A stretch of 64,000 nucleotides of DNA, taken from the IMG/VR virus record IMGVR_UViG_3300009873_000012, positions 6,136 through 70,135 of that record. One strand, written 5' to 3'. Under the pieces are notes generated by a model, which saw only the letters and a program-made list of their open reading frames with translations, did not search any database and had not been told where the DNA came from. The translations under genes and the position numbers were made by a program. Positions 6,948 through 41,755 of this stretch are shown in pieces (the first letter of the stretch is position 1; every line of letters begins with the position of its first letter). The DNA comes from a virus (taxonomy: Duplodnaviria; Caudoviricetes).

Positions 6948-8954
6948 ATGGAAAAAGTAAATCAAGAAGAGTATTACAGCGCTATAGCCTCAATTGGTGA
7001 TAATGGATTTTATACCAATGTGGACGGGCGCGGTACCTCAATGCGCCATGATTATTCATATAGTGATTATAGCGCAGAAAAACCATCTTTAGTTTTACCG
7101 CGTACACAGCGCGATATAATTCTAACTATGGATGAAGTCTACGAGAATTTTGGCTTAATCAAACAAATTATAGATTTGATGGCTGACTTTGTAATTCAAG
7201 GTATACGTATTGTACATCCGCGCCCTAACATTCAAGAGTTTTATGAAAATTGGTTTAATAGGGTTGACGGGCTTCACGTATCAGATAGGATAGCGACCGG
7301 CTTATTTAAGCACGGAACATGTATAGTAAGGCGTAAGTATGCTTCTCTAAATAAGAAATTAGAGCGCGACATAAAAACCGCGCGCGCTGACTTAGAACCT
7401 TTAGAAATACCGCGCCGATCTATACCGTGCCGCTATTCATTTTTAAATCCCGCCGTAGTAGATGTAGTCGGCGGTAGTATTTCGTCTTTTGTCTCTGGCA
7501 ATAAAATTTATGGAATTGTACTACCAGAAACCATCAAATCAATGATTTTAAATCCCTCAACAACGGAAGAAGCTAGCGCAATAAATGCACTTCCAGAGGA
7601 AATAAGGGCGGCTGCCAGAAAAGACGGGATTTTCCCTCTCTCAGTCAACGATACCATCGTACTCCACTATAAGAAGGACGACTGGAAAAATTGGGCTAAA
7701 CCCATCATTTATTCTATTTTAAAAAATGTGTTTTTGTTGGAGAAGATGCAGCTGGCGGACTTTTCCGCATTAGATGGCGCTATAGATAGAGTAAGAATTA
7801 TTAAGTTGGGTGATCTAGAACACCAGTTAGTGCCCAACTCTGACGCGTTTGCCAAACTAAGAGATGCCTTACAAGGAAATGTAGGTGCTGGAGTTAGAAC
7901 TATTTTGTGGGGACCCGACATTAAGATGGAGGAAAGTCAAACTGACATTCACCAATTTTTAGGCGACGACAAATATAAACCCGCTCTTAATGGAATTTAT
8001 GGTGGAATGGGTATCCCTCCTACTCTAACAGGTAGTGAAAATAGTGGGGGTGGTACTACAAATAACTTAGTTTCTCTTAAAGCGCTAGTTAAGCGCTTAG
8101 ATTATGTGCGAAATCAAGTAGTGAGATTTTGGACACGAGAACTTACAATTTTAAAGAAAATATTAGGGCATAACCAGAATGCCGAGATAGAGTTCGATAT
8201 TGCAAACTTTGGTGACGAAGAGGCGGAAAAGAAACTTTGGATTGATTTGGCAGACCGCAACATTATTAGTCACGAAGCTCTTCAAGTTAGATTTGGCGCC
8301 AAGCCCGAAGTTGAAGAAGCTCGTATGCAACGTGCCGAAAAAATGCGTAGTAGCAAGAGGCGCGCTCCTAAAGCTGGTCCGTGGCATAACCCAGAATGGG
8401 AAAGGATGGCTCAAAAATCCTTATTAGATAAAGGAGTGGTGGACCCTTCACAAATAGGAGTTCGCCTAGAGGAAAAGGGTGATGACGACCTGAACGAGGT
8501 TGGCGTTACTGCGCCGACTCCCAAAACCGAGCCGGCACCAAAATTGGACAATCCTGGGGGAAGACCCGCCAATACAAAGGACTCGTTACCGAGAAAGCGC
8601 CGCCTCTTTAAGACACAAGTGCGCGCTACAAAAATTTGGGCTGATGATTGTCACGCCGCCTTAGATGATCTAATTAATCCTTTTATTCTTAATCAATTTA
8701 AAAAGAAAAATATGCGTAGTTTATCCAAGGAAGAAATACTTTTGTCTGAAAGATTGAAGTTGAGTGCATTCTTTGGATTAAAGTTAAATCAAGAAATTGA
8801 TCCGAGCGTACTAAAAAGCTTAAATAATGATATGTATGAGGAATACCTCAAAAGTGTAAGCTCTATAGAGAGCGAACTAAATAAAAAGTTAACGCTAGAA
8901 GAAAAGCGCGATATAGCCTCAGATATGCTAGTGGAGAAATTTTATGTCATGTGA
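6948..8954 (+). CDS. Portal protein
   Basis: 668 aa downstream of terL, with a helical portal-like pattern (YENFGLIKQIIDLMADF..QG; WA.PIIYSIL....LEKMQLAD.SALDG; GIPPTL.G) and a Pro-rich C-terminal extension. Confidence 0.8.
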   Translation: MEKVNQEEYYSAIASIGDNGFYTNVDGRGTSMRHDYSYSDYSAEKPSLVLPRTQRDIILTMDEVYENFGLIKQIIDLMADFVIQGIRIVHPRPNIQEFYENWFNRVDGLHVSDRIATGLFKHGTCIVRRKYASLNKKLERDIKTARADLEPLEIPRRSIPCRYSFLNPAVVDVVGGSISSFVSGNKIYGIVLPETIKSMILNPSTTEEASAINALPEEIRAAARKDGIFPLSVNDTIVLHYKKDDWKNWAKPIIYSILKNVFLLEKMQLADFSALDGAIDRVRIIKLGDLEHQLVPNSDAFAKLRDALQGNVGAGVRTILWGPDIKMEESQTDIHQFLGDDKYKPALNGIYGGMGIPPTLTGSENSGGGTTNNLVSLKALVKRLDYVRNQVVRFWTRELTILKKILGHNQNAEIEFDIANFGDEEAEKKLWIDLADRNIISHEALQVRFGAKPEVEEARMQRAEKMRSSKRRAPKAGPWHNPEWERMAQKSLLDKGVVDPSQIGVRLEEKGDDDLNEVGVTAPTPKTEPAPKLDNPGGRPANTKDSLPRKRRLFKTQVRATKIWADDCHAALDDLINPFILNQFKKKNMRSLSKEEILLSERLKLSAFFGLKLNQEIDPSVLKSLNNDMYEEYLKSVSSIESELNKKLTLEEKRDIASDMLVEKFYVM

Positions 8955-9525
8955 TTGCTCAGGTAATGATGATATTCAACTTGATCCGAGCGGCTATGTA
9001 ACGCCTTCTGATGCGTGGAATACTTGTATTGTTAATATGGTGCGCGCACATATAGGTGACTATAGTGACCCGCCCGAGTACACAGATGAACGAATTTTAC
9101 AAATTGCCGCTGCCGCAGCCTATTTCGTTTCCGTCGATATAGCCAGCTGTGATGTGACGGCGCCCTCGGTCGCCTGTGATGGCACTATGTCGTTTGATCC
9201 AATGAGTTATCCCTCTTTTGTAAATTTAGTGGTTTTAAAGGCAGCCTGTATGTTAGACAGGGGAATGATGAGGTCGCGGTTTCAAACGGAAGGAATTGCC
9301 GCTACTTGTGGACCAGCCGCGTTAAGAATAACGGCGGGTTCTGGTGCTTATGACGCCTTCGCAAAGTTCGGTGCTTGCGCAGCTTACGCCGAACTGAAAA
9401 AAGAACTGTGTTTTATGGCGCCACTTAGAAGTGCGCGATGCGCCATCCAAATTGTTTCATTTTTTGTAAGCGATCATTATCATCCGGGTTGTTGTAACCC
9501 GTGTAGGGGACCACGACATGTATAA
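8944..9525 (+). CDS. Putative head-tail connector/adaptor
   Basis: Follows the portal gene; contains VRAHIGDYSDPPEYTDERILQIAAAAA and LVVLKAAC. 13 Cys in 193 aa. Confidence 0.5.
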   Translation: MSCDCSGNDDIQLDPSGYVTPSDAWNTCIVNMVRAHIGDYSDPPEYTDERILQIAAAAAYFVSVDIASCDVTAPSVACDGTMSFDPMSYPSFVNLVVLKAACMLDRGMMRSRFQTEGIAATCGPAALRITAGSGAYDAFAKFGACAAYAELKKELCFMAPLRSARCAIQIVSFFVSDHYHPGCCNPCRGPRHV

Positions 9526-13423: not shown

Positions 13424-14788
13424 ATGAAAATATATAAAGAAGAACTTGCACTAGCTGAACAAATTTTCGCACAAAAGTCGGTGGCGTTTTGTACGCAAGT
13501 TGTTGAGGCTGATAGTGTTCCTGAAGTCGAGAGCGAAAGTGCGTTTGCCGCACTAAAAATCAATATTGAGACGCCTAAGACAGAAGACCTCTATTATACT
13601 CGTTCAATTTTAGTTAGTACCGGCTTTAATAATAACGACGATGTTTTTCATCCGCACGAAGTGTGGAAAGCGCGAAAGACTCCAGTCGACAAACCGACCA
13701 ACATTGAGCATGACGATAGCCGCATAGTTGGTCATATCACTTCAAACTGGGTTATTGACAATCAAGGAAACATATTAGAAGACAACCTGAATATAGAGGA
13801 TGTTCCTTCTGTTTTTCACATTGTTAATGGCGCCGTTATTTATAAACAGTGGCAGTCACAAGAATATAAGGATATGGCTTTTGACCTAATTAAAGAAATT
13901 AAAGAGGGATCCTACTATGTAAGTATGGAGTGCCTATTTAATGATTTTGATTATGCTATTAAGGACGGCGACAAAATTCGAGTGATTCCACGCGATGAGA
14001 CTAGTGCGTTTCTTACTGCCCACCTAAGATTGTTTGGTGGGTCCGGCATTTATGAGGATAAGCGCTTGGGGCGCCTTCTCAAGAATATTAATTTCTCGGG
14101 AAAAGGATATGTTAAAAAGCCAGCAAATCCAAAGAGTGTAATATTTGAAAATGACAATATTAATGAGTTTTCTTTTGCTGGTGTATATGATATTTGTAGT
14201 GCAAAAATAAAGGAGAGTGACATGTCACAAGAGATAATCGAAGATCTAAAAGGGCAAATTAAAGAATTGAGCAAGGCAAACCAGTCCTTAAAGGACGAAA
14301 TTGCTTCCGCCGATGCTGCCCGCTATCAGAATCAAGTAGAAGAGCTGAAAGCCTCCCTAAAGAACGAGCAGGAACTGCGTGTTAAGGAACAGGAAGCTAA
14401 GGCTTGTATGTGTGATCAATATGAAGAGCTGGCTAAGAAGAACGAAGAGCTTGTAGCCGAGCTAAATTCTATGAAAGAGTGCAAGAAGAAAGATGCGCGC
14501 GTTGGCGCTTTTATTGAGCGCGGCTTTTCCAAGGAAGATGCCGAAGCTAAGGCTGGCGAACTTTCAGCACTTGATGACACAACTTTTGAAAAAGTTATTA
14601 AGTTAATTCCGGCAGTTGCTTGCTGCCAGAAGGTAGCTCCCATTAATTTGGAAGAGCTTGAAGAGGAAGTAGAAGTTGAAGCGTCTGTAGACGTTACAGA
14701 TGAGAAAGAGAATGTCTTTGCTGCACTCGTTGAAAGTACAGACAAATATTTTTCAGAAAAGTGGTCTAACCACAAAGGAGATGAGTAA
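13424..14788 (+). CDS. Prohead protease with C-terminal coiled-coil scaffold domain
   Basis: Contains N.N.D.F, KP.NIEH, VSMECLF and FSGKGYVKKPANPKSVI protease-like blocks, followed by an acidic coiled coil. It lies directly upstream of the decoration and capsid genes. Confidence 0.75.
   Translation: MKIYKEELALAEQIFAQKSVAFCTQVVEADSVPEVESESAFAALKINIETPKTEDLYYTRSILVSTGFNNNDDVFHPHEVWKARKTPVDKPTNIEHDDSRIVGHITSNWVIDNQGNILEDNLNIEDVPSVFHIVNGAVIYKQWQSQEYKDMAFDLIKEIKEGSYYVSMECLFNDFDYAIKDGDKIRVIPRDETSAFLTAHLRLFGGSGIYEDKRLGRLLKNINFSGKGYVKKPANPKSVIFENDNINEFSFAGVYDICSAKIKESDMSQEIIEDLKGQIKELSKANQSLKDEIASADAARYQNQVEELKASLKNEQELRVKEQEAKACMCDQYEELAKKNEELVAELNSMKECKKKDARVGAFIERGFSKEDAEAKAGELSALDDTTFEKVIKLIPAVACCQKVAPINLEELEEEVEVEASVDVTDEKENVFAALVESTDKYFSEKWSNHKGDE
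14180..14215 (+). promoter_or_regulatory. Internal late promoter motif (GGTGTATATGAT) and SD (AAGGAG) for a nested scaffold gene
   Basis: Motif at 14180-14191, AAGGAG at 14210-14215 and an in-frame ATG at 14222. Confidence 0.55.
14222..14788 (+). CDS. Nested in-frame scaffolding protein (188 aa)
   Basis: The ATG is Met267 of the protease ORF, has its own SD and promoter motif, and begins exactly where the coiled coil starts (MSQEIIEDLKGQIKELSK). Confidence 0.6.
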   Translation: MSQEIIEDLKGQIKELSKANQSLKDEIASADAARYQNQVEELKASLKNEQELRVKEQEAKACMCDQYEELAKKNEELVAELNSMKECKKKDARVGAFIERGFSKEDAEAKAGELSALDDTTFEKVIKLIPAVACCQKVAPINLEELEEEVEVEASVDVTDEKENVFAALVESTDKYFSEKWSNHKGDE

Positions 14789-15258
14789 TGGCACTTAAAG
14801 GGTATCGAAATCACGGGTGCGGCACCGGTTCGGTGGTTAAACACTTTATGAACGAAGTCGCGGAAAAGGGTATCGTTGTAACGCGAAAGTCTGGGTCCAC
14901 TGGATCTGGTCTTCCGGGCGATGCTCAAAATATCGTCGAGGTTCCTGCTGCTTCTGGTAATGGCGATGCTATCGGCATCCTATTGACTGATGTAGTTGAC
15001 ATTGACGTAACTAGATTTTGTCACATTGGTCGCTCACATCGCAGTGAAACCACGCCTTGTAATCCTGTAGAAATTATGGACAAGGGCGAGGTTTATACTA
15101 ACATGTTGGCTGATGGAGCTACTCCGGCAGCTGGTGACGACGCTTACTACACAGAGGGTGGTCTTCTGACTGATGATAGTGGCGAATTTGGTCCAATCGG
15201 AAAATTCGAAGGTCCGGTTCAGTCCAATGGTTACGTTGTAGTCAAAGTCGATCTATAA
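14788..15258 (+). CDS. Capsid decoration/cement protein
   Basis: 156 aa Gly-rich beta protein between the scaffold and capsid genes, translationally coupled (TAATG). Confidence 0.65.
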   Translation: MALKGYRNHGCGTGSVVKHFMNEVAEKGIVVTRKSGSTGSGLPGDAQNIVEVPAASGNGDAIGILLTDVVDIDVTRFCHIGRSHRSETTPCNPVEIMDKGEVYTNMLADGATPAAGDDAYYTEGGLLTDDSGEFGPIGKFEGPVQSNGYVVVKVDL

Positions 15259-15275: not shown

Positions 15276-16274
15276 ATGTTTAAGTCAGCACCTGAAGAGC
15301 TGAAAAAGCTTTGGGTAGCAGGTAGTTCCCACAATTTGACAGAAGCAGCTGAGCCGACCGCTAAGTTAGCTAAAGCGTTGGAACTTCCTCTCCGAAAAGG
15401 CATTATGAGCTGTGATACGGTAAAAAACATCTTTGAGATGCAAGATTACCGCGATTGTCGTTGCGTCGAGTATCCGCTTGACTTTGTTCAACCAGGTACC
15501 GAAAAAGAGTATACGGCGTTTGTTGTACCTGATTGCGGTTACATTCCCCATCGCTTGGTAGAAGGTGATTATGTCACTGTTCCTACTTATACTGTAGCCA
15601 ACTCAATTGAGTGGTGTCTAAAGTATCAGCGTTGTGCGAACTGGAATGTTATGGAGCGCGGTCTTAAGGTATTGCGCGACGGTTTCACGAAGAAGTTGAA
15701 TGATGACGGCTGGCACGTTATTTTGGCAGCAGGTCTTCACCGAAATATTGTTGTTGTTGATGATGCTGCGGCTGAGGGTCAGCTTACAAAGCGGCTCGTT
15801 TCTTTGATGAAGTTGGTTATGCGTCGAAATGGTGGAGGTAACTCTACCTGCTTGAATCGCGGTACTTTGACGGATCTCTATATGTCGCCAGAAGCGATGG
15901 AAGATATTCGCAATTGGAACGTTGATCAGGTTGATGAGTTGACACGGCGCGAAATTTTCGTAGGCGAGGGCGATGCAGGCATTAGCCGCATTTTCCAAGT
16001 TAACTTGCACGCAATGGATGAACTTGGTGTAAACCAGGAATATCAATTGTACTATGAGGATGAGCTGAGTGGTGCGATGCCTCCGAATAAGCTCGAGCTT
16101 GTTGTTGGTTTGGACCTCTCTCGTAGAGACAGCTTTGTATTGCCAGTAGTTAAGGAACTAGAAATCATCGAGGACACCTGCTTGCAGCGTCACTTGAAGA
16201 GAGGTTTCTTCGCTTACTGGGAACACGGTATCGCAAGTCTCGATAGCAGACGCGTACTTTTAGGAGCCATCTAA
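15276..16274 (+). CDS. Major capsid protein (HK97-like fold inferred)
   Basis: 332 aa with a strong RBS (TAGGAG), canonical position, and an intrinsic terminator immediately downstream. Confidence 0.8.
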   Translation: MFKSAPEELKKLWVAGSSHNLTEAAEPTAKLAKALELPLRKGIMSCDTVKNIFEMQDYRDCRCVEYPLDFVQPGTEKEYTAFVVPDCGYIPHRLVEGDYVTVPTYTVANSIEWCLKYQRCANWNVMERGLKVLRDGFTKKLNDDGWHVILAAGLHRNIVVVDDAAAEGQLTKRLVSLMKLVMRRNGGGNSTCLNRGTLTDLYMSPEAMEDIRNWNVDQVDELTRREIFVGEGDAGISRIFQVNLHAMDELGVNQEYQLYYEDELSGAMPPNKLELVVGLDLSRRDSFVLPVVKELEIIEDTCLQRHLKRGFFAYWEHGIASLDSRRVLLGAI

Positions 16275-17446: not shown

Positions 17447-17453
17447 ACTCATA

Positions 17454-17482: not shown

Positions 17483-17489
17483 CCACTTT

Positions 17490-17501
17490 GGTGTATATAT
17501 A
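17490..17501 (+). promoter_or_regulatory. Putative late promoter GGTGTATATATA
   Basis: Followed by AAGGAGG and the ATG at 17521. It restarts + strand transcription after the capsid terminator. Confidence 0.6.
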
Positions 17502-28738: not shown

Positions 28739-31700
28739 ATGGCTGATCCAGTAATCGGTATTAATGTTGCATTAAATCCTCCTACGGATATAAGGGGGAC
28801 CTTAGCGGCTGTACAGAGAGAACTGGATAGAGTTGGTCTAAGAGTCAAAGTTGGTGTACCTCGAGATATACAATCAGCCATTCAAGCAAAGGCTACAGCT
28901 GGTGCTCGCGCTGTTTCTAGACTATCAACTGCCCAAATTGATGATTTGTATAAGGCAACTGCAGCTCTAAAGGATTATGAAAGAAGAAGTAGAGAAGCAA
29001 CTAATGTAAGTGAGGATTTAGGTAAACAGGCAGCTATTACTTTTCGTCGTTTTGCTGGTTATCTTTTAGTTACGCGCACTATGTATGGATTAGCTGGCGC
29101 TATTAGATCAGCTACTGGAGAAGCTTTAAAACTTAATCGCGAGTTTGTTAAAATAGCGCAGCTTACAGATACTAGTGCGCGCGGAGTTTCTTCATTAAAA
29201 AGTACTACACTAGAACTTAGTAAAGCTTATGGTACTTCAACTCTAGAAATAGTTAAAGCCGCTCAATCGTTAGCTCAGGCTGGTAAAAGCATGAGTGATA
29301 TTGATCAGATTTTACGCGCCATTACTCCGGCTACTTTAGTAGCTGAATTTGGAGATCTCGCTAAAAATACTGAGAATATGCAGGCTTTACTTACTCAGTT
29401 TAATTTAAAGGCTAGCCAAACTGGTGATGTTTTAGACGTTTTAAACGTTATTACCAAAGAATATGATGTTAGTGTTCAAGAACTATTCGATGGGTTAAAA
29501 AGGTCTGGTTCGGCGTTCGGAGCATTGTCGGGCGCTATTAATAGTGTGGATCCAGCCAAAAACTTGCAAAGTTTGCGTGAATTTGCTGCGATATTTACTA
29601 CTATTATATCTACATCTCGTGAAAGTGCCGAGTCTGTAGGTACGGCACTAAAAACTATTTTGCCGCGTTTACAAAGACCTACTACTATTAATGCATTGAG
29701 AGAAGTAGGAATAAATATCCTTGATGAGCAAGGAAACGTAGATAAACCGTTTGAAGCATTTAGAAAAATATCTAGTGCCATTAAAGATATGAATGTTAAC
29801 GGACTACAATTTAGTAAGATTTTGGAAGAAATAGGTGGGTCTCGCCAATTTAATAAAGTTGTTGCTTTAGTTACTCAATTTGAAAAAGCGGAAAGAGCAC
29901 TAGCCATTTCTCAGAACGCCGCTGGTTCTATTGGGAAAGATGTAGAGATAGCTCAACAAGACTTCTTAGTACAACTCAGTAAAGTGCGCGCAGAATTTCA
30001 AGCGCTTTTTGTAGAAATTGTTAATACTGGCGCATTTGAGAGATTAGCAAGTTCGTTCATTACCGCAGCTAATGCTGCAGTTAAATTGGCAGACGCTCTA
30101 GTTCCTCTTTTGCCCTTGCTTTCAATTATTGGTGCCGGAGTTGCACTTTCTGGATTAAAAGGATTTGCAACTAAGTTTCGTACTAATTTTGGACCATCTC
30201 AATTATCTGGACTTAATAGTGGTGGACCCGTTGGATTTGCTAGAGGTGGTAAAGTTTCCGCAATTCTAACTCCTGGTGAAATAGTAGTGCCGCCAAAGGA
30301 GGCTAGTCGTTTAGGTTTATCTAAATTAGAGAGCGCTAATTCTTCTGGGAGTTTAGGTGGTTCTTCTTTGCGTTCATTTGCTGTAGTCCCAGGAACTGGC
30401 AACACCGATACAGTACGAGCAGGACTCGATGTTGGTTCTTATGTAATTAAGAAAAATTCTGCACAAAAAATTCTTCGCTCCCAACTTCTCGCAAGAAAAA
30501 ATAAGGGTGGGGCTATAGGTTTTGTTAATGGAGGTTCTTTATCTGCAGAACAAAGAGCTATTGGTTTGTCTTTTTCCAGAGAGTTTCGGTCTCTTGGTGG
30601 AACAGCAAAACAATTAGATAAGACATTAAAAGCTATTGTTGGGTCTACTAGAAATGCCGGCGACGCTATGGGTAGCCTAAAGAATATTTTAGATAAGTTA
30701 AGGAGTGGAGAGGTATCGCGGACTCCTACTGGGCGAGCGAAACAAAGTTCTTTAGATAAAGCCATATTAGCTGAACAACAAGCCTTAGGTAGAGCGCAAA
30801 AGAAGAGGCAAGCTGATGTTCAAGCAGCGATTGAACGCACTGCTATTCAAGAAGAAAGAACGCAGAGGCGCCTAGAAAAGGCGAAATTGAAAAATGCTGT
30901 ACAATTTGGTCCACAGCGTAATCCTCTTTTAGTTTTAAATAATCAAGAAGATATAACTCCTATTATTGCCAATTCTGATAATTTATCAAATGCGCAAAAG
31001 CGCGCACAAAGAAGAGCTGGTAAAAAAGGTCAAATTTTATCGTTTAACGCGTTATCACGAATTAATCAAGCGGCATTATTAAATAACGAAAGTCCTTTCT
31101 TCGAAAGAGATAGCCAAATTACTCGGGCTAGCGGTAAAACATTACCTCCCGGTTTTTTCTCAACAAAGACGCCCAACCTATCTAGATTTGCACGTTCATT
31201 AGGTACGCCTTCATTGTCTGGGCTAAATAACTTGTTGAATAAGCCAGGTGTTGGAATTGGAGCAGCTGTTTTAGCGGGATCGCTAGCACAATCTGAAAAT
31301 AAAACCGCTCAGGGAGCTTCTACTGTTTTGGGCGGCGCTTTAGCGGGTGGCGCCGTGGGTAGTGGTATTGGTGGACCTTTTGGTACTGTGATTGGCGCAG
31401 TAATTGGTGGACTAGCGGGTTTAGTGTCGGCGCTTGATAAATACAACAAAGAAATAGTTGTTGCAGCTATAGATAAACAAACTAAACAACTTAAAGAGGT
31501 AAAAACTATACGGGAGTTTACAAGTACATTCGATAGTAAACTTTTAGGACGAAGTAATGAAACAGGCGCTGGAGAAAAAGCGCTACAAGCTGGTACATTT
31601 TTTGCAACTGCGGGAACTTCTTCATTATTTAAAAAACTAGACCAATCAATAGGATTTGGGATAACTTCTGGAGCGCGCGGAAGAAGCGGCAGTATAGAGT

Positions 31701-33694
31701 TTGCGCAAGCTGCGACATTTGATGCGTTCGCGCGCTTAATAGGTAATAGTGACGACGTTAATTTAAATAAACTAGATAAAACCGTTAGAGAGAGAGAAAT
31801 AGGTACAGAGCGCGGTAACTTTCAGCAAAGCTTTGAACTCGCTATAGCGAAGGCGTTAGAACAGATTCAATCATCGCCGGGCAGTATAGGTAAAACTACC
31901 GAGTCTGTAAAAACCTTATTACAAGAAGATGCTGGTCTACTTGCTTTATTTTCTGAAAATTTAAAAGATGTAACCGACTTAGATAATCCGACGATCAAGA
32001 TGAAATTATTTGCCGAGGTTTTTAATGAAAAAATTGGTAAAGTTGCTCAAAAAGCCTCTGAACTTGCAGATAATTTAGAAAAAATGGGTCGAAGTTTATT
32101 AGATTGGGATGGAATACTAGATAAATCAGCAAAAAGACTAAATGATTTACAGTTTTTATCTTCTCAAGAGCAGCGAATTAATGAGCGACTTTTTGCGAGA
32201 GGGAGTAATCAAAATGAGTTTACGGGATTAGCCCCACTAAAAAATATATTTAGTGATTTGACTGGACGTTCTCAAAAAGAAATTATAGATAGTATTTTAC
32301 AAGTTCAAGAAAGGTCGGGAACGGGTGGGCGTTCTCCTATTTTTGATGCAGCGCTAGCCGCTGGCTTTGTACAAAACGATTTACAGCGTTCTATATTTAG
32401 CGCGACTCCTACTGATGATGCTGAAACCTTTATTCGTTCACAATTTAATGGCTTGCCAAGCGAGGCTACTGATTTAATAGAAAAACAATTAGAGTTATTT
32501 TTTCAAGATGAAAAAGGACTCGGTAAAAAAATTGGCGATTTACAAAAAAATCCAGAACTCTTACAGCAACTGAAGGACACACTTAACAGTGGTACTTTAA
32601 AGCAGGCACAAGATACTGCCGCCAAAGGCGTAGACGCGTTAAACGCGCGCACCGAAGCTTTAAATGAAGCTTTTAAGAAGTTAAGCCTGGAAGTTGTACG
32701 CGTGCAAACTGAAGCGCTTCGCATTAATGAAACGCGCAATAATGCAGCCGACTTTCAACGCAGTCTTCGCGGAGATACTAGCGCCAACATAGGTTTAGCT
32801 CAAGGTAGAGAAGCTTTCGATTTAAGACAGTTAACTGGACAAGGCGATGTTAGTGTAGCTAATTTGACTAGCCAACTAAGAAAATTAGATCAGATAGAAA
32901 CATTAAGCGCAGATGAAGCGGCACAACAAGCGCGCCTTATTAAGGCATTAGAGCTAACGGCGAGCGAAACACGCGTATTAGCCGAAGTAGAAAAGAAGCG
33001 TGCCGAAGTAGAAAAAACTAAAGGGGAAGCTCGCTCCCTAATAGAAAGGTTAGCTACGGGTGACAACAAAGCCATCGGACAATTTAATAGGGGTTTGCAA
33101 GATTTTGGTATTTTAAGTAAAGGCGGGGCTGCTTCTCTCACACCTGAAAGACGCGCTAATGCGCTCGAGGCATTTCGTGCAGTCAGTGGTCAATTTGGTA
33201 TAAAAGATGAAGATAGAGAAAGAACAATTAGTAGTTTATTGGGGAACTTTTTAACTCAGCGTGGTTTACCCCAAAACATAGTAAATAATGCCGTTAATGG
33301 TGGAGCGGAAGCTAAATCACTTTCCGTAATTGCTGAAAGTGCCTTTGAAAGAATGGCTGCCGCCCAACAAGTTTTAATTGATAGGCAGCTCGCTGGATTG
33401 GAAGTTGAGCGCGCTCAATTACAAAATCAGAATGCTATGACGCCCGCAATATTTGCGGAAATCTTCCAAACTAGTTCAAACAATTTAAATACTGGATTGA
33501 CAAAGTTTAATAGTTTAGTAGAGGGTGGTTTATCATTTGAAACTACGATTAAGCCGGTAACGATAAACTTGGCAATTAGCGCGCCTGATTTAGCGGGCGT
33601 TGCCGATGGATTGCGTCCCTTTATGGAAAGTTTAATTATGAATACCGTTCAAAAGAACGCCAGCCAAATAGCGGATACACTAAAAAATGTCTAA
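28739..33694 (+). CDS. Tail tape measure protein (TP901-like core)
   Basis: 1651 aa rich in Ala, Leu and Gln, with a core pattern (ELSKAYGTS..EIVKAAQSLAQAG; ESAESVGTALKTILPRL), a glycine-rich hydrophobic segment, and no Cys. Confidence 0.9.
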   Translation: MADPVIGINVALNPPTDIRGTLAAVQRELDRVGLRVKVGVPRDIQSAIQAKATAGARAVSRLSTAQIDDLYKATAALKDYERRSREATNVSEDLGKQAAITFRRFAGYLLVTRTMYGLAGAIRSATGEALKLNREFVKIAQLTDTSARGVSSLKSTTLELSKAYGTSTLEIVKAAQSLAQAGKSMSDIDQILRAITPATLVAEFGDLAKNTENMQALLTQFNLKASQTGDVLDVLNVITKEYDVSVQELFDGLKRSGSAFGALSGAINSVDPAKNLQSLREFAAIFTTIISTSRESAESVGTALKTILPRLQRPTTINALREVGINILDEQGNVDKPFEAFRKISSAIKDMNVNGLQFSKILEEIGGSRQFNKVVALVTQFEKAERALAISQNAAGSIGKDVEIAQQDFLVQLSKVRAEFQALFVEIVNTGAFERLASSFITAANAAVKLADALVPLLPLLSIIGAGVALSGLKGFATKFRTNFGPSQLSGLNSGGPVGFARGGKVSAILTPGEIVVPPKEASRLGLSKLESANSSGSLGGSSLRSFAVVPGTGNTDTVRAGLDVGSYVIKKNSAQKILRSQLLARKNKGGAIGFVNGGSLSAEQRAIGLSFSREFRSLGGTAKQLDKTLKAIVGSTRNAGDAMGSLKNILDKLRSGEVSRTPTGRAKQSSLDKAILAEQQALGRAQKKRQADVQAAIERTAIQEERTQRRLEKAKLKNAVQFGPQRNPLLVLNNQEDITPIIANSDNLSNAQKRAQRRAGKKGQILSFNALSRINQAALLNNESPFFERDSQITRASGKTLPPGFFSTKTPNLSRFARSLGTPSLSGLNNLLNKPGVGIGAAVLAGSLAQSENKTAQGASTVLGGALAGGAVGSGIGGPFGTVIGAVIGGLAGLVSALDKYNKEIVVAAIDKQTKQLKEVKTIREFTSTFDSKLLGRSNETGAGEKALQAGTFFATAGTSSLFKKLDQSIGFGITSGARGRSGSIEFAQAATFDAFARLIGNSDDVNLNKLDKTVREREIGTERGNFQQSFELAIAKALEQIQSSPGSIGKTTESVKTLLQEDAGLLALFSENLKDVTDLDNPTIKMKLFAEVFNEKIGKVAQKASELADNLEKMGRSLLDWDGILDKSAKRLNDLQFLSSQEQRINERLFARGSNQNEFTGLAPLKNIFSDLTGRSQKEIIDSILQVQERSGTGGRSPIFDAALAAGFVQNDLQRSIFSATPTDDAETFIRSQFNGLPSEATDLIEKQLELFFQDEKGLGKKIGDLQKNPELLQQLKDTLNSGTLKQAQDTAAKGVDALNARTEALNEAFKKLSLEVVRVQTEALRINETRNNAADFQRSLRGDTSANIGLAQGREAFDLRQLTGQGDVSVANLTSQLRKLDQIETLSADEAAQQARLIKALELTASETRVLAEVEKKRAEVEKTKGEARSLIERLATGDNKAIGQFNRGLQDFGILSKGGAASLTPERRANALEAFRAVSGQFGIKDEDRERTISSLLGNFLTQRGLPQNIVNNAVNGGAEAKSLSVIAESAFERMAAAQQVLIDRQLAGLEVERAQLQNQNAMTPAIFAEIFQTSSNNLNTGLTKFNSLVEGGLSFETTIKPVTINLAISAPDLAGVADGLRPFMESLIMNTVQKNASQIADTLKNV

Positions 33695-35189
33695 CAATAT
33701 TGTATTTAAAATTAATGAGTATACGATGGAACCGGCGCCTATGATAGCGCTGACCAAGAACTTTATTCGTACGGGTTCTGGTGAGGTTATCAATGTTGTT
33801 TACAATGCCGAAATTACTGGGGTATTAACTACACTCAGTATAGGGTGTATTGGTGGGATCGGGATCACAATAGACTTGTTGAATGAGATGAGGAGCGCGC
33901 TTTGTAATTGTAGTTGCGCCGACATGGAGTTGACTTGTAATGATGAAGTTTTATTAAAGGCGAATGTACGTATTAATAGTATCCAATTTGATAAAAGCAA
34001 TGATAATTGGGTGTTCACTATACCTTACAGTATGTCAGTCGAGTGGGATTCTCTTGAAGAGACACTACCTAGTGGCTCTGAGTATTTACTATGTCACTCT
34101 TGCTTACGTCAGGTGAATGAAACGTGGGAAGTCTCATACTTAGATGGTTATCATAAATACATTTTAGATTGTTCGGGTTTTACCAACCCAGAGTATCTTT
34201 CGGTCTCTCATAATGTAAGCGCGACTGCCGTAGACTGCTGTGTTGCCTCTGGCGACCCTATTCCGGGCTGGGAAGTTGCTCGCTCTTGGGTATTAGACCA
34301 TATCGGATATGATGCTGACATGGTTGATTCGTCCGGTGTATTCGGATTTGATGCGTCTACCTTTTCGGGGTGTGAACACGTTCGCGTAAAAAATATTGAT
34401 AAATATAATGGGAGTTTCTCCGTTAATGAAACTTGGATTGCCGTCTCAAATTCTGGAAGTCCGACTTGTCTTGAAGAATTCACCATAGAGACCACTTCAG
34501 ATAATACGAGAAGAACAAAGTCACACAGCATAAGCGGGACTATAACGGGCTTGGAAAAGCGCGATGCAGATTTTAATTTAATAACGACCAAATTTGAATC
34601 AGCGTTAGCTTGCTGGAGCGGAGTAGAACCAATACTTTATGAGAGAATAGAATGTGCGGGAAACTCTGGTATTTGTCCGGTTAATCCTATTCCAGTATCG
34701 TCTACTGTGGGAAAGAATCCGGTGGCTGGGGTTGTGACGTACAATTATAGCTATGATGATAGACCGCTCTCTCTAATTAGCGGCGCATTATCCGAGTCAA
34801 TAAATTTTTCAGATACCCGTCGTAGTGAGCAGTACGCACCGATTCCTATTTTGGGGCGCTCTCAAGGACCTCTGATCATGAGTTGTGGAAGTACGAATGA
34901 ATTTGTAAAGTCAATTTCTATTTCAGCTGTATTGCCATATCCTTCTGGTTGTGCTCCCGCAACAGCTAATGCGTGTTCGCGCTTCATGTCGTTATTGGAA
35001 GCTGAGCCAAATTCTGAGACTGAGGAATTTTTGTGTTGTTATGAAGCCATATTGCTGAGTGGTTATGATGTGGTGATCCGCAATAATGATAGTTCTAGTT
35101 ACGATATAAATTCTGGTGCGTATTCGCGCTCAGTAAGTTGGGTAGTCCAAAATTGTAATGATGGGTTGCCTGGAGGTTATTGCGATTGA
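33687..35189 (+). CDS. Distal tail/hub-like protein
   Basis: Follows the tape measure gene; beta-rich; 22 Cys in 500 aa. Confidence 0.55.
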   Translation: MSNNIVFKINEYTMEPAPMIALTKNFIRTGSGEVINVVYNAEITGVLTTLSIGCIGGIGITIDLLNEMRSALCNCSCADMELTCNDEVLLKANVRINSIQFDKSNDNWVFTIPYSMSVEWDSLEETLPSGSEYLLCHSCLRQVNETWEVSYLDGYHKYILDCSGFTNPEYLSVSHNVSATAVDCCVASGDPIPGWEVARSWVLDHIGYDADMVDSSGVFGFDASTFSGCEHVRVKNIDKYNGSFSVNETWIAVSNSGSPTCLEEFTIETTSDNTRRTKSHSISGTITGLEKRDADFNLITTKFESALACWSGVEPILYERIECAGNSGICPVNPIPVSSTVGKNPVAGVVTYNYSYDDRPLSLISGALSESINFSDTRRSEQYAPIPILGRSQGPLIMSCGSTNEFVKSISISAVLPYPSGCAPATANACSRFMSLLEAEPNSETEEFLCCYEAILLSGYDVVIRNNDSSSYDINSGAYSRSVSWVVQNCNDGLPGGYCD

Positions 35190-36038: not shown

Positions 36039-39000
36039 ATGAGCCCGCTTAAATATTCCGGATGTGACGATTGTATCACAGTAGACAATAGTGTCCAAAC
36101 AATGTACTTGGGTTGCTCGATATCAACAGTGAGCTGTTCAATCGGTTGGAATGGCTCGGGCTCGTCTTACAGTGTAGTTTTGGCAGAGGACAGCTGTGTT
36201 GGACCAAGAGTCTACTGGGACGAATGCCTAGAGCATCACAGTGAGAATACCGCCGACTTTGGCTTCTTTGGTGAAGATCGTTATGAACGCGCAAATGGAA
36301 CCCAATACAGCTCGTGTATTAAAGAGGATCCTTCGGATACCTTAGTGCGTGCCGCAATCGAGCTTAATGGTCTTCCCTCTTTCCTTAGAATTGGCGAATT
36401 TGAAATTTGCGGAATCATCTCTAGTTGGACTCGTAATAATACTTGTCCCGTCACTTACAGTGTAACTTTAGCAGATACGAGAATTATTTTGCAGGGTGTC
36501 TCTCTTATAATTTCTGATTATGCTGGACGTGTTGACCAAACAATTCCACTAATTGATGGGGGAACTAACTGCCCATCTACAAATTTATTTAATGTTTTTG
36601 GATTTGCTGAGCAATTTGGATTATATTGTCCCGAATTTTCCCAGTGTGCGCCTTGTGTTTACGCAAGTAGTGCAACGTGTCCTACGGCAGTAGATGGAAT
36701 AGTACACGGTTCGCCCTTTAATGGATTTGGCGGCTCTAATTGGAATGAGCAAGGAATGCCTTGTTCTACAATACAGTTAGCTTTTAACTTAATGGCTAAT
36801 ACCTTACCGGCTACCCCAACTGTATTTTCTCCTTATGGGCGCGTCGTATATGCAAAAACAGATATTCCAATATCTCTAGTTGGAGATGCTTGCGGCTTAA
36901 TGCAGCCTGACGAATCTGTTGATGCGTGTACAGATTTAAATAATTTCTATTTTGTCGACATTAGCGAGTTACCCACACCTCCCATAAATTATAGATTTTC
37001 CGGCACCGCCGTTACCCTGATGGAAGTTATAGATAGGTTGTCACAGGATTTCGGCTTTGAATATTATGTTGATTTGGTCCCTGTCAAAGTAGAGGGAACT
37101 CCATGTGTCTACAAATTTATTAAAATTCGAGTAGTTTATAGGACTACCCAACCTAATTTGGACGCCATTTGTTCATTTATAGAGAGTGCTGACTGTCAAG
37201 TAGAATCTACAATAGGAAGAGAATTACGCAGCGAAACTACTTCGCGCTTCATCATAGGTGGTAACAAGTACAGTATTTATCAAGCTTGTCAAAGTACGGA
37301 TCCAGAGGGCGTAGGCGATGGAACTATAGCCTCCATCGATTCTTGTGCGGGCGAAACTTCTTATGTCACCAATACGGGATGTACCGCCATTGATGATATG
37401 ATTGTGCCATACTTCGGCACCCACTATAATGGGGATTTAATAGATGCATGTTTAGATGCTAGTGGCTACTGGTATTTTAATGCGCCCACTTTCGAGGTTA
37501 ACTCCAGTCTACAATGTACGGGATTTTCCTCGCCCACTATTACGATAGGGGAAAAAGAGCTTCTTTCAGCGCTAGCTGGTTTTGAAAACTGGAAGACTTA
37601 CATAAGTGTGTTGAATACACCGACTTGGCAGGCAATAAGTCAGGTTACTCCCACTCTAGCATTACGAAGTTTTGGTTTAACTATAAATGCGCTTGTAGCA
37701 GATGGTAAAATAGCGGCGCGTGATTTGGTTAACCCACACGTAGATAAGTTTGGCGTAGCCGACGATCCGTTGGATGCGCGCTGTATGGATGACGAGGAGA
37801 ACATTTACCAATGGGTATTTAAGTATGCTAGCGACTATTATGGAAAAAGATTTGCCGTCAGAGTGCCTTTCTCATGTTGTTGGGCGGACTACGAGAACGG
37901 TAAACTAAGAGTAAGCGATTTACCCTCTAATGATGGTGGATGGACCGAAGTCCCAACTGTAATAGGTTTATATAATGGTGGTCCTCTATCAGTGGGCGCC
38001 TTCGAATATTTAAACTTTTTCCGCGCTGAAGACGGGCGCATTTTACCATTTGTTAAGTTCACCTGCGCCCTACTTTTGGATACTACCTCGCTCGCCGTAG
38101 ACGACTACTTCTACTATTATAATATAACGGATGGGCTTAGCGACGTAGATAGTGGAGCAGGACCCCCCTCAGCAGTACCAATGGCGGGCGCCAACAGGGT
38201 TTATATAGACACTCTCTCCAACCAAATTTACATTTATTATTATACTACTGCAGAGTGGTTGCCTATACAGGCTGTTCCTACTTTAGTAAATAGCGGCGTG
38301 CCCTCTAATACGACAGTATGCGCTCCAGCATCAAGATTTGGAACACTTCCTGTAGATATTCCTATCTATATAGATAAGGATACTTGTACAGTTTATATCT
38401 CTTATAAGTTGCCAGACTATACAGAGACTGACGGAACAGTGTGCGCCAATAGTGATATCGATTACACAATAGAGGCTACTGTCGACCTATACGTTAAGGC
38501 TCAAGTAGAAGAAACTTATAAGTTTTTCGATCATCATTGCTGCTTTGCACCACGCGTCGTTGTTGAAATACCACAAGCTATCATGTTTAGAAATAATGAG
38601 GACTCGTGGTTTATTAATGGGATTGAGGAGGCGGTTTGTAACTATATAGATTTGGTTAATAGTGATCCTGTAGCAGCTGGTGTTGAGTTATGTGTGCCGG
38701 GTCCTCTAGATTGCGAAACTTTAAAAGCTCAATTAAAAACCTCAGTCTTAAATAGTATTGGTGGTCCAGATGCCTGGATAAATATACAGAGAAGATCACC
38801 TCTTATTAGTGCGGCGGCTTTTCCAATTAGGAGCACCACTATTTCTTATGGACCGTGGACTAATCCTAGCTCTGCTGGCGGCAATATAGAGGTTACTCAA
38901 GACCCAGGTTTAGTACCGTGGAATTTTGGCAGTTACGCTGGAATGAATACCGCTGGTCAATTTTTGGCTGATGCTGGTCGTACTGACATGCTAGTTGGAG

Positions 39001-41189
39001 AAGTAGGATCCATAACTGTGCCTGGACATCCCAGCTTGCCACTAGGCGCAGAAATTGGAGCCGTCGCCGGTGGTTATTATGGAGCCGGCACTCACTTAGT
39101 AGAAAATAGAAGTTTAGCTACTACTAACTATAGTGGAACTAGCGTAGAATCTAATCCTAGCGGGGCTCCCTACGTAGCAGATTATGGCGGGGTTACCTTT
39201 GGATCATGGACTGGATTATATGGACCCAACATAACAAGTATTAGCGTTAGTGTGGGTTGCCCAATTCAAACAACCTATCAAATGAGAACTTTTTCTCCGC
39301 GTAAGCTAGGTCTTGATAAATGGCTGGTAGATCAAGTTCAAAAAATCAATACAAATACACAGCGCCAAGTAGAATATGTTAGGAGACTTCTAGAATTAGA
39401 GCGAGGAGCGCGTCTCACAGCCTCTATAGGCGCACGTGCAGCAGATAAGCGCCAGAATCCCCAGGGAGAAATAAAACGCCTTGTGAAGCCAATGTCGTGC
39501 TTTGTGGGGCAGAATATAGATATCAATGGGAATACGCGCCCACTAGTTGAGGGTTCTCAAACTGCTATGCTTTCTGAGGAAATGCAGAATAGTTATGACA
39601 ATAAAGCGTTTATGTCTATTGACGGTTTATTAAGACCCGTTTCTATGGATGGTGGTGGAGGTTTACCCGCATTTTATCAATATGGTGATTATTTCACTTT
39701 AAGTGCTACTACCGCAGATATATTCCAGGATGACCTAATACCTCTCACTAATCCGGGCGGTATGAGTAGAAATATTGTATCTAATGTTAGAAGCGACACG
39801 CCAAATGTTGGGCACGATTTTGATATGGTTGGCAGGAGTGGAATTTCCGAGGAGAATCCTACTCCTAGTGGCGGTCTAATAATGAATTGTCACAATAAGG
39901 GCTTATGTAGTGTTAGTGGTGCCTATACAGATGACTATAGATATATGGCGCTTCGCGGACCATTAGTTATGCAGAGCTGGGGTTATGATTTAGATGGTAT
40001 ACCAGTTCCCAACAAAGTAGATACTCAAGAAGATGCAGTACAAGGTATTTTTGAAGACGATCCCAACGTATTACACCCCTCAAAATTTATGGATGGACAC
40101 CTACAAAAAGCTCATACTTGGGCTGTCGCTCCCATAGATTTAAGATTAGATAGAGAGCGCGGTGTCTGGGTTGCTGGTAGTGGAGGTTATCCTATCAAAG
40201 CCTCTTATGAGTGCGTAGTGGGCAACTATATTAAATTAGACAACTGTGAGGTTGAAGCTACACCATTTAGACCTAAAGCTCTATGTTTTGGCGCCGGTAT
40301 TTCTATTGATTTGCCATGTTCGGGAGATGAAACTTCTTGGGAAATCGATGAGACAACGGGCGATCTAATTATTTGCGATCCTATATCTACAACAAGTCCT
40401 TCTGTACTAAAAATAGGCGCCTCTATATTTATTACTAACGCCTTAGAAAATCCAGATGTTGGGTGTATTTATCAGGATTATACTGGTTATGTAGGCACAA
40501 TAGATAATCCTCTCGGGCAATTCTATAGAGAACGTAACGCCAACATAATTGTTTTGGATAATGGATTTATCACACAAGCTGACATAACAAACCCTTGTAA
40601 ATTAACCATTGGTTTGGCGGGTATAACATATACACAGCAATTTTATTCTGATTTGCGCTGTGAATCAGTTATTACTGAACCCACTGGAACTGAGGCGCCA
40701 TTTTTACAGTCTTTCCGCCTGCTAGCTACAGATAATAATGCGCAGTTTAATTGCGGCTTATTGGGAGATACGCCTACTTCAGTTGAAGATTACATAATTT
40801 GTGATTTTACAAAGTGCTGCTCACAAAGCGATAGTGTTAATGATTTTGAAGTGGTTGGTGTAGATGGCGGTACTGGTCAAGTATTAGATCGCAGTATTCA
40901 GCGCGGTGCTACTTTGGCAGTAAACTCTAATAATACCGACTTTTTAAACTTCACCGTTACTAATACTACAGATCACTGGATTGAAATAACCGGAGTAAAT
41001 GTTGTTGGAGACTACTTTGACAGTGGACCGACGATGTCACCAACGTTAATAACACAAAATCAAGCATTTCTAATTCAAGTTCCAACTAATACTACCGGTA
41101 GTTCCGTTACTTTGCGACATGGGCTTTTAGAGGTAACTCAAACTAGCGGTACGCCATTTGTCTTTGGGGTTATGGGGTTAGTAATATGA
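36039..41189 (+). CDS. Large tail-tip/baseplate protein
   Basis: 1716 aa acidic beta-rich protein at the end of the tail operon, with about 53 Cys by hand count. Confidence 0.65.
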   Translation: MSPLKYSGCDDCITVDNSVQTMYLGCSISTVSCSIGWNGSGSSYSVVLAEDSCVGPRVYWDECLEHHSENTADFGFFGEDRYERANGTQYSSCIKEDPSDTLVRAAIELNGLPSFLRIGEFEICGIISSWTRNNTCPVTYSVTLADTRIILQGVSLIISDYAGRVDQTIPLIDGGTNCPSTNLFNVFGFAEQFGLYCPEFSQCAPCVYASSATCPTAVDGIVHGSPFNGFGGSNWNEQGMPCSTIQLAFNLMANTLPATPTVFSPYGRVVYAKTDIPISLVGDACGLMQPDESVDACTDLNNFYFVDISELPTPPINYRFSGTAVTLMEVIDRLSQDFGFEYYVDLVPVKVEGTPCVYKFIKIRVVYRTTQPNLDAICSFIESADCQVESTIGRELRSETTSRFIIGGNKYSIYQACQSTDPEGVGDGTIASIDSCAGETSYVTNTGCTAIDDMIVPYFGTHYNGDLIDACLDASGYWYFNAPTFEVNSSLQCTGFSSPTITIGEKELLSALAGFENWKTYISVLNTPTWQAISQVTPTLALRSFGLTINALVADGKIAARDLVNPHVDKFGVADDPLDARCMDDEENIYQWVFKYASDYYGKRFAVRVPFSCCWADYENGKLRVSDLPSNDGGWTEVPTVIGLYNGGPLSVGAFEYLNFFRAEDGRILPFVKFTCALLLDTTSLAVDDYFYYYNITDGLSDVDSGAGPPSAVPMAGANRVYIDTLSNQIYIYYYTTAEWLPIQAVPTLVNSGVPSNTTVCAPASRFGTLPVDIPIYIDKDTCTVYISYKLPDYTETDGTVCANSDIDYTIEATVDLYVKAQVEETYKFFDHHCCFAPRVVVEIPQAIMFRNNEDSWFINGIEEAVCNYIDLVNSDPVAAGVELCVPGPLDCETLKAQLKTSVLNSIGGPDAWINIQRRSPLISAAAFPIRSTTISYGPWTNPSSAGGNIEVTQDPGLVPWNFGSYAGMNTAGQFLADAGRTDMLVGEVGSITVPGHPSLPLGAEIGAVAGGYYGAGTHLVENRSLATTNYSGTSVESNPSGAPYVADYGGVTFGSWTGLYGPNITSISVSVGCPIQTTYQMRTFSPRKLGLDKWLVDQVQKINTNTQRQVEYVRRLLELERGARLTASIGARAADKRQNPQGEIKRLVKPMSCFVGQNIDINGNTRPLVEGSQTAMLSEEMQNSYDNKAFMSIDGLLRPVSMDGGGGLPAFYQYGDYFTLSATTADIFQDDLIPLTNPGGMSRNIVSNVRSDTPNVGHDFDMVGRSGISEENPTPSGGLIMNCHNKGLCSVSGAYTDDYRYMALRGPLVMQSWGYDLDGIPVPNKVDTQEDAVQGIFEDDPNVLHPSKFMDGHLQKAHTWAVAPIDLRLDRERGVWVAGSGGYPIKASYECVVGNYIKLDNCEVEATPFRPKALCFGAGISIDLPCSGDETSWEIDETTGDLIICDPISTTSPSVLKIGASIFITNALENPDVGCIYQDYTGYVGTIDNPLGQFYRERNANIIVLDNGFITQADITNPCKLTIGLAGITYTQQFYSDLRCESVITEPTGTEAPFLQSFRLLATDNNAQFNCGLLGDTPTSVEDYIICDFTKCCSQSDSVNDFEVVGVDGGTGQVLDRSIQRGATLAVNSNNTDFLNFTVTNTTDHWIEITGVNVVGDYFDSGPTMSPTLITQNQAFLIQVPTNTTGSSVTLRHGLLEVTQTSGTPFVFGVMGLVI

Positions 41190-41755
41190 AAATTCACTTG
41201 GTTGATGAGAACCCTTTACAAAAAAAATTTATAACCTATTTTATTAAGGACTATGAGTACGTCCCATTGGAAGACTCCGACATTGTTCTTTATAGAAACG
41301 TATATCCTATAGTGCCCATCTCACACTCTCGTCAACCTCGTAATTTTTATATGAGTGGAAGATTAACTAAGTTGTTTTTTGGCATAGTATCAGACGAAGC
41401 TAAGTTTTCCAATGAGGGATATTGTTATTGTGAACACGACATAGTTATGAATAACTTTTTGGAGGCACTTCCATATAGACAAAACAAATACTATTCTTAT
41501 TATTATATTTTTATGGTTTTGCGCTACCTAATAGAAAAGGCGCGCCACATGATTCATGGCGCGCCTTTGAGAAGTCCGCTCGCTATTTCAGAACGTTATT
41601 CAGTATGTAGTGAATGTCCGTTCTTTGATAGAATATCAGAAGGTGAAGGACAGTGTTCTATTTGTTGTTGTGGTTTAAAGCGCGAGGGGAATGAGATGAA
41701 TAAGTTGGCTTGGAAAACTACAGTTTGTCCACACAATCCACCTAAGTGGTTTTAA
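41186..41755 (+). CDS. Hypothetical protein with C-terminal Cys cluster (possible Zn binding)
   Basis: ERYSVCSECPF...CSICCCGL...KLAWKTTVCPHNPPKW; last gene of the + arm. Confidence 0.6.
   Translation: MKIHLVDENPLQKKFITYFIKDYEYVPLEDSDIVLYRNVYPIVPISHSRQPRNFYMSGRLTKLFFGIVSDEAKFSNEGYCYCEHDIVMNNFLEALPYRQNKYYSYYYIFMVLRYLIEKARHMIHGAPLRSPLAISERYSVCSECPFFDRISEGEGQCSICCCGLKREGNEMNKLAWKTTVCPHNPPKWF

Follow-up and report, generated by a model that had tools for sequence, protein, structure and literature searches.

Covalent disulfide networks in tailed phages were regarded as rare curiosities until the structures of Milano, Jabs and NBD2 were determined. In the Agrobacterium phage Milano, a disulfide network is present in the capsid, neck, collar and tail, and dithiothreitol (DTT) abolishes the resistance of the particle to sonication and heat (PMC10491603); the comparison with Milano made here takes in 7-7-1 and OLIVR4 (PMC10491603, PMC10811340), and Milano's structural proteins are approximately 2.1% Cys, as quoted in PMC13576161. 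The siphophage Jabs carries approximately 1,700 disulfides (PMC13419713). In NBD2, the tail tube protein gp39 forms inter-ring disulfides that raise thermostability and are found in only approximately 14% of the PF08813 family (PMC13576161), and in Pam3 the fibres are attached to the baseplate by disulfides (PMC9942802). For major capsid proteins (MCPs), a survey gives a median Cys content of 0.21% in reference phages and 0.51% in gut phages (10.64898/2026.07.03.736451). Here, we describe a 64,000-nucleotide stretch of DNA (the window), which corresponds to bases 6136-70135 of a single linear viral record of 70,135 bp. The source is an uncultured aquatic siphophage, and the window carries its virion module, a siphophage morphogenesis block on the plus strand from approximately 2.9 kb to 41.8 kb (coordinates are positions in the window unless a contig is named). 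In the outer shell proteins encoded by this module, paired Cys have probably been selected, and the particle is probably disulfide-stabilised.

The locus resembles Milano in its high Cys content (1.8% over the whole module and 3.6% in seven outer proteins), in the conservation of the Cys among close relatives, and in the involvement of capsid, neck and tail alike. However, Milano has a contractile tail, a collar and cement proteins and no sequence relationship to the window, and its bonds were seen by cryo-electron microscopy and tested with DTT. Jabs is likewise a siphophage whose network spans every outer part from the capsid to the tail tip, as is proposed for the window, but it belongs to another host and lineage and has two MCPs. 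As in the case of NBD2 gp39, whose family is otherwise Cys-free, the disulfide-bearing branch proposed here would be an evolutionary add-on within a tube family; gp39, however, is a single-domain protein with 2 Cys, while the tube protein of the window is of the tandem T5 pb6 / P74-26 type with 13 Cys. The MCP shares with HK97 the fold and the notion of a covalently reinforced shell, but the chemistry proposed for the window phage is a disulfide instead of the Lys-Asn isopeptide of the HK97 chainmail. Finally, unlike the gut-phage MCPs, in which Cys are mostly buried and isolated, the window MCP has 2.4% Cys, which are paired and replace polar residues. An initial annotation of this DNA had referred to poxviruses and some thermophilic viruses as the known disulfide-stabilised virions, a view that is outdated now that networks have been solved in Milano, Jabs, NBD2 and Pam3. 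Disulfide-networked tailed phages are already known; what is added here is an uncultured case, with relatives that form a stepwise series and with residue pairs that are named explicitly.

Cys accounts for 2.05% of the residues across the 69 genes of the record and is distributed very unevenly among them (chi2 = 257, 68 degrees of freedom, p = 9e-24). Seven proteins, named by the initial annotation, form the outer set. In gene order, these are a 193-aa probable head-tail adaptor or "connector" (8944..9525, +; 13 Cys, 6.7%), the MCP (15276..16274, +; 332 aa, 8 Cys, 2.4%, HK97 fold), a 181-aa head-closure-position protein (23449..23994, +; 11 Cys, including C58-x2-C61 ... C80-x2-C83), a 310-aa tail-terminator-position protein (24720..25652, +; 11 Cys, with 2-8 Cys in relatives), the tail tube protein (25689..26930, +; 413 aa, 13 Cys), a 500-aa distal-tail (Dit)-position protein (33687..35189, +; 22 Cys) and a 1716-aa tail-tip protein (36039..41189, +; 53 Cys). 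Cys is scarce in the portal protein (6948..8954, +; 3 Cys in 668 aa), in three chaperone-like or assembly open reading frames (ORFs) of 295, 96 and 220 aa (26912..28735, +; 1, 0 and 2 Cys, with homologs that are equally Cys-poor), and it is absent from a 235-aa neck-position protein (24016..24723, +) and from the tape measure protein (TMP; 28739..33694, +; 1651 aa). Compared with the genome mean, the binomial p values are 2e-15 for the TMP, 1e-3 for the portal, 2e-4 for the 193-aa protein and 1e-3 for the Dit-position protein. The hand counts of the initial annotation are exact for every one of these proteins.

With the MCP as query, 21 IMG/VR relatives were retrieved, and four of them (G001-G004) were taken whole. 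The seven outer proteins contain 3.59% Cys versus 1.70% in their G001-G004 homologs (ratio 2.11, Fisher p = 3e-10). For the assembly and internal set, which comprises the portal, the protease/scaffold, the cement-like protein, the neck protein, the chaperone-like ORFs and the terminases, the values are 0.92% versus 0.89% (ratio 1.03), and for the replication and other non-structural set they are 2.30% versus 1.98% (ratio 1.16, p = 0.14). Some regression to the mean is to be expected because the seven outer proteins were chosen for high Cys; the difference nevertheless holds when all structural genes with homologs are pooled (2.3% versus 1.2%). In aligned columns, Cys reaches 2.05 times the homolog mean, and every other amino acid lies between 0.83 and 1.16. 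Since Trp, Gly, Val and Phe, which are favoured by a G+T-rich coding strand, are among the residues that are not enriched, mutational or compositional bias was rejected as an explanation: only Cys differs from the homologs. A Cys richness of the whole genome that is not specific to the virion, as suggested by the minus-strand replication genes at approximately 2.3% Cys, was also rejected after the comparison with whole relatives. The 2.4% Cys of the MCP is approximately 11 times the reference-phage median (10.64898/2026.07.03.736451). These comparisons support a Cys enrichment that is virion-specific, gene-specific and selected. The gene-specific pattern, which the initial annotation had read as selection instead of mutational bias, is borne out in that it concerns only Cys and only the outer proteins and recurs in divergent relatives.

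This recurrence is seen in L022, L024, L026 and L069, contigs that carry Cys-rich MCPs or Cys-rich tube or Dit-position homologs and that repeat the Cys pattern of the window gene by gene. The MCP of L022, whose source is the marine-biofilm BioSample of PMC6355793, is 55% identical to that of the window. In these Cys-rich relatives, the adaptor homolog contains approximately 6-8% Cys, the head-closure homolog approximately 5-7%, the terminator-position protein 3-4%, the tube 3.4-3.8% and the Dit-position protein 4.4%; the chaperone-like ORFs contain approximately 1%, and the 235-aa neck homolog and the TMP contain 0 Cys. The individual residues are also retained. In the adaptor and head-closure homologs, 60-91% of the Cys are kept versus 34-57% of the other residues, with 69-85% of the Cys of the 193-aa protein kept and with the further Cys 129, 148 and 151 of the 181-aa protein kept as well. 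The retention of Cys is 0% in the portal and chaperone-like proteins; in the protease/scaffold it is 0-50%, at or below the background of 37-51% for other residues.

Among the 120 best homologs of the MCP, the Cys counts are bimodal, with 0-4 Cys in 113 and 9-12 Cys in 7. Similarly, most members of the 193-aa family have 2-6 Cys and a minority has 11-23, and in the Dit-position family the nearest 8 homologs have 18-22 Cys and more distant ones 1-11. The relatives form a graded series, in which G002-G004 are Cys-poor throughout, G001 is Cys-rich in the tail (16 Cys in the Dit-position protein, 37 in the tip and 10 in the adaptor, with a single Cys pair in the MCP), and the window group is Cys-rich from the capsid to the tip. 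Judged from these gene comparisons, the Cys richness of the outer virion is a clade trait. Relatives of the MCP number more than 4,600 in public metagenomes, marine and freshwater samples among them, and the trait arose within this very large environmental phage family, which has Cys-free, intermediate and fully Cys-rich members.

The arrangement of these Cys is the best pointer to the mechanism. Cys columns occur as all-or-none pairs in four families, those of the capsid, the tube, the adaptor-like protein and the Dit-position protein. At tube positions 8/122, N-D is found in 51 sequences and C-C in 30, with 0 half-pairs; at 264/281, H-E is found in 39, C-C in 12 and P-V in 8; C-C is also found at 330/347 in 72 sequences (72/74) and at 39/204 in 22. 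In the MCP, positions 46/192 are G-S in 113 sequences and C-C in 8 (8/8), and positions 87/114 are C-C in 30 (30/30) and otherwise H with N or L; no half-pairs of the MCP survive over the divergence of the Cys-rich MCPs. The adaptor-like family has C-C at 102/145 in 135/138 and at 69/156 in 19/19, and the Dit-position family has C-C at 450/499 in 15/15, with C84 and C422 as a further pair. Among Cys columns, the fraction with a same-residue partner column (Jaccard >= 0.8) is 50% in the MCP (0-12% for other residues), 50% in the Dit-position family (at most 18% for others) and 33% in the tube. In independent contrasts on the tube tree, 39/204 and 264/281 each show approximately 4 changes in the same direction and 0 in the opposite direction, and 330/347 and ins558/392 each show 2 in the same direction. 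The joint replacement of polar pairs (N/D, H/E and G/S) by C/C is what would be expected when a contact becomes a disulfide, and the all-or-none gain is the classical signature of such bonds. In the structural models, 6/8 Cys of the MCP and approximately 10/13 Cys of the tube are placed in loops or at strand ends, and the terminal or loop segments that hold tube C8, MCP C46 and MCP C192 are poorly ordered in the monomer models (predicted local distance difference test (pLDDT) from <50 to approximately 70), which would fit contacts formed only in assembly.

The Cys-poor proteins of the module carry less of the argument than was initially thought. In G001-G004, the TMPs likewise contain 0 Cys and are poor in H, W and Y, and the window TMP has 0 His and 1 Trp where approximately 27 and 22, respectively, are expected. 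Since the TMP is Cys-free in Cys-poor relatives too, it provides no contrast to the Cys-rich proteins, and the use made of it in the initial annotation fails. Its lack of Cys belongs, on this comparison, to a reduced residue alphabet and is a family trait, consistent with the idea that an ejected protein must remain unlinked but no evidence for it. The low Cys of the portal and of the neck protein, which had been offered as a contrast in the same way, is instead a family trait: portal homologs have 0-8 Cys and the 3 Cys of the window portal are not conserved, and the homologs of the 235-aa protein have 0 Cys in L022, L024, L069 and G002 and 1 in G001.

Based on the results presented above, a mechanism may be outlined. 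Selection would have added Cys in pairs to the capsid, the probable adaptor, the head-closure- and terminator-position proteins, the tube, the Dit-position protein and the tip, and the proteins that act inside the particle or only in assembly (the portal, the scaffold/protease, the chaperone-like ORFs, the TMP and the 235-aa neck protein) would have stayed Cys-poor. On exposure of the particle to an oxidising environment, at lysis or later, the paired Cys would form disulfides; these would pin down loops inside individual subunits and would, in places, connect adjacent subunits. The outcome would be a particle that is mechanically and thermally tougher, as for Milano, Jabs and the NBD2 tube. 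We infer that the bonds form, when they do so and what share of them joins subunits. With regard to the disulfide-locked particle of the initial annotation, disulfide stabilisation is backed indirectly by the all-or-none pairs and by the virion-specific enrichment, while cross-links of the lattice between subunits and their formation after lysis are hypothetical. In a more far-reaching scheme, inter-subunit bonds along the capsid, adaptor, tube, Dit and tip would act as a redox-gated lock, with reduction at the host envelope needed for the Cys-free TMP and the DNA to exit, and capsid pairs such as 46-192 could form a covalent chainmail-like shell; we regard this scheme as doubtful.

Several observations weigh against a disulfide-stabilised particle. 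The pairs are known here from sequence covariation, and no single pair is significant in the independent contrasts, in which there are too few events. For the 8 Cys-rich MCPs, a single clade was not rejected (approximately unbiased (AU) test, p = 0.34), which leaves polyphyly without support, and each MCP pair may therefore reflect a single event. Most of the Cys-rich proteins have odd Cys totals (13, 11, 11, 13 and 53), so some thiols are unpaired within the chain; part of the Cys of the 181-aa protein is ancestral and resembles a metal site; and no oxidase or isomerase is present in the 70 kb, so oxidation would be spontaneous or host-dependent. In the survey of gut-phage MCPs, moreover, the enriched Cys are 83% buried, nearly all isolated and not disulfide-bonded (10.64898/2026.07.03.736451). 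If the bonds lay within single chains only, the fold of the subunits would be stabilised, the lattice would not be covalently linked and there would be no lock. Such an arrangement is suggested by tube positions 264/281, which flank a predicted beta-hairpin, by several pairs that are close in sequence context and by the Cys-x6-Cys pair in each repeat of a 614-aa protein (described below), and covariation of pairs cannot separate intra-chain from inter-chain bonds. We nevertheless consider it unlikely, since tube C8, MCP C46 and MCP C192 lie in poorly ordered segments of a kind that typically orders only on contact with neighbours, and since, with an odd number of Cys, each chain retains one or more thiols for an inter-chain partner. 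Across the genes with non-zero Cys counts, 23 are even and 31 odd, without the even-number bias that is a signature of intrachain disulfides. Both kinds of bond are combined in Milano and Jabs (PMC10491603, PMC13419713).

It is rather improbable that the added Cys are mostly free thiols or metal ligands, that is, buried packing residues or zinc sites. The all-or-none gain of pairs at distant positions, at the expense of polar N/D, H/E and G/S, speaks against this explanation, as does the location of the MCP and tube Cys counted above, mostly in loops or at the ends of strands, and His is not co-enriched (ratio 1.08). The strongest case for a metal is made by the 181-aa protein, in which C58-x2-C61 and C80-x2-C83 are kept in 5/6 relatives, Cys-poor ones included, and for which no family match was found; this set may bind zinc or may be two ancient disulfides. 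At its end, the tip gene is overlapped by a 189-aa ORF (41186..41755, +; 9 Cys) whose C-terminal motif has zinc-ribbon spacing (C141-x2-C144-x12-C157-x2-C160), but Cys-x2-Cys motifs are few outside these two proteins. The metal-stapled lattice considered in the initial annotation is accordingly plausible for the 181-aa set only. Approximately 40% of the lineage-specific Cys of the window replace hydrophobic residues, which together with the burial and isolation reported for gut-phage MCPs (10.64898/2026.07.03.736451) would suit packing residues. Far less probable still is an absence of any virion-specific selection, in which composition or the host would account for the Cys richness of the genome (2.0%) and the differences among genes would be family traits. 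The whole-genome value of 2.05% and the approximately 2.3% of the replication genes could be read in this way; however, the replication proteins are equally Cys-rich in the Cys-poor relatives (1.98%), only the outer proteins differ (2.11 versus 1.03 and 1.16), W, G, V and F are not enriched, and pairwise gains are unexpected from compositional drift. Selection of paired Cys in the outer shell, with disulfide stabilisation of the particle, is therefore the explanation that we favour as probable.

The search for a phage-encoded thiol oxidase is limited by the extent of the record, which has linear ends and an estimated completeness of approximately 47% (CheckV). Relatives of 85-94 kb are 57-62% complete, and related contigs from metagenome-assembled genomes (MAGs) and Logan reach approximately 140 kb, so about half of the phage genome is probably missing. 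Within the 70-kb record, approximately 47% of the genome, PF04777, PF00085 and PF01323 gave no match at E <= 1, and a six-frame motif scan revealed no Erv, Trx, DsbA or glutaredoxin motif; the Erv/Dsb/thioredoxin-like oxidase that the initial annotation had envisaged elsewhere in the genome did not turn up in these 70 kb. The single weak glutaredoxin match (PF00462, 12.5 bits) is spurious, the ORF being an 85-aa Zn_ribbon_8 (FmdB-type) protein (61609-61866, -; 6 Cys; 31 bits). The 189-aa ORF was also rejected as an Erv-type oxidase, since it has no Erv, Trx or DsbA family or motif and shows zinc-ribbon spacing. Erv is absent from the four relatives G001-G004. G001, the nearest of the relatives taken whole, encodes a thioredoxin-fold protein (L056:1489-2073, -, equivalent to G001:C1:86749-87267; PF00085, 57 bits) in which a hydrophobic segment at the N-terminus ends in a lipobox-like FAGC and the WCGYC active site is like that of protein disulfide isomerase, features that suggest an exported thiol-disulfide oxidoreductase; no homolog of it was found in the 70-kb record (approximately 47% of the genome). 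In the Cys-poor G004, a 358-aa ORF (L052:1339-2412, +) carries a WCPHC (DsbA-type) motif.

With regard to the identities of the virion proteins, the labels head-closure, terminator, distal tail and tip reflect gene order only. The AlphaFold model of the MCP (pLDDT 81) matched the capsids of HK97, T5, DT57C and D3 in Foldseek with a probability of 1.0 and E ~1e-8, and tblastn with the MCP against the INPHARED phages gave no match. The tube protein is without a Pfam match; its model (pLDDT 92) matched SH-Ab15497, 8xan, 8ed0 (P74-26), 9iny, 5ngj (T5 pb6) and 8hrg (DT57C) over 400-450 columns in Foldseek, and single-domain tubes align to it over only approximately 160 columns. On the strength of this full-length match of the model, the 413-aa protein is a tail tube with two tube-fold domains per chain. 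The TMP was recognised by PF10145 (PhageMin_Tail; 84 bits versus a cut-off of 33), with phrog_4211 and phrog_28 among the PHROGs matched, and the portal by phrog_2739; the terminase also has a PHROGs match. Sequence searches against Pfam, PHROGs and the PDB yielded nothing usable for the 193-aa, 181-aa, 310-aa, 500-aa and 1716-aa proteins. For the 193-aa protein, the only leads are adaptor-like structures in Atlas (SU10 adaptor, T4 gp13 and Phage_connect_1, at a TM-score of approximately 0.45); the 310-aa protein has only weak DUF2460 and Dit-like matches, its role being taken from gene order; the 500-aa protein has only a weak Dit_like lead; and the 1716-aa protein has no family match in Pfam or PHROGs. 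The homolog of the tip in G001 has 37 Cys in 1721 aa, and that in L069 is split into two genes with 21 Cys in 1100 aa and 22 Cys in 663 aa. Just before the MCP gene lies the gene of a 156-aa cement- or decoration-like protein (14788..15258, +; 3 Cys), which matches PF22758 Phage_cement at 24.6 bits, under the cut-off of 27, and phrog_563 (virion structural protein); its relatives have 0-2 Cys, and the L024 homolog has 5.

Other features of the module concern further genes and the gene order. In the window (17470-18063, +) and in L027, a gene close behind that of the MCP encodes a 197-aa serine protease of the trypsin type (PF13365, 41 bits), and a 454-aa ORF that the initial annotation had called a protease/scaffold has no protease match and only a coiled-coil-like match. 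Two HNH/endonuclease genes (phrog_4645 endonuclease; PF13392 HNH_3 with a helix-turn-helix) interrupt the structural module, one downstream of the MCP gene in reverse orientation (16286-17530, -) and the other separating the Dit-position gene from the tip gene (35253-36029, +). Their Cys contents of 3.4% and 4.7% are unrelated to the virion, and both are absent from G001-G004, which suggests recent insertions of homing endonucleases. The adaptor-like gene directly follows the portal gene in the window, directly follows the MCP gene in L022 (11144-11929) and L019 (11076-11609), and lies one gene further downstream of the MCP gene in L024 (6747-7403); in L026, the adaptor, head-closure and terminator-position genes are upstream of the protease/scaffold gene. 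These differing positions indicate that the head module has been rearranged several times.

Two further Cys-bearing ORFs deserve mention. Between the terminase and portal genes, a 614-aa ORF (5093-6937, +) consists of five repeats of approximately 80-86 aa, each with one Cys-x6-Cys (139/146, 212/219, 303/310, 389/396 and 475/482), together with two CC doublets near the N-terminus. It is without a homolog in G001-G004 and has only sub-threshold Pfam matches, and it resembles a fibre or decoration domain of the extracellular type with disulfide loops. A 254-aa ORF with 18 Cys (7.1%) just upstream of the window (L070:5271-6035, +) has no Pfam match and adjoins a sigma-like ORF that enters the window start. 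With respect to the host, 12 MAG contigs carry relatives, and 5/12 were binned as Bacteroidota; the MCP is Cys-rich in 0/12, and phage contigs are not binned reliably, so that any host inference from these bins is weak.

The present case indicates that a disulfide-networked virion can be recognised from sequence alone, by an enrichment of Cys that is specific to the virion when compared with homologs, by a conserved pattern among genes and by the all-or-none gain of pairs. If the redox-gated lock considered above were true, the graded series of relatives, from Cys-poor through tail only to the whole virion, would record the stepwise evolution of such a lock. This natural series names the residue pairs (N/D, H/E and G/S to C/C) that bear on how shells and tubes gain stability, and it may serve as a guide to the design of robust protein nanotubes and capsids.

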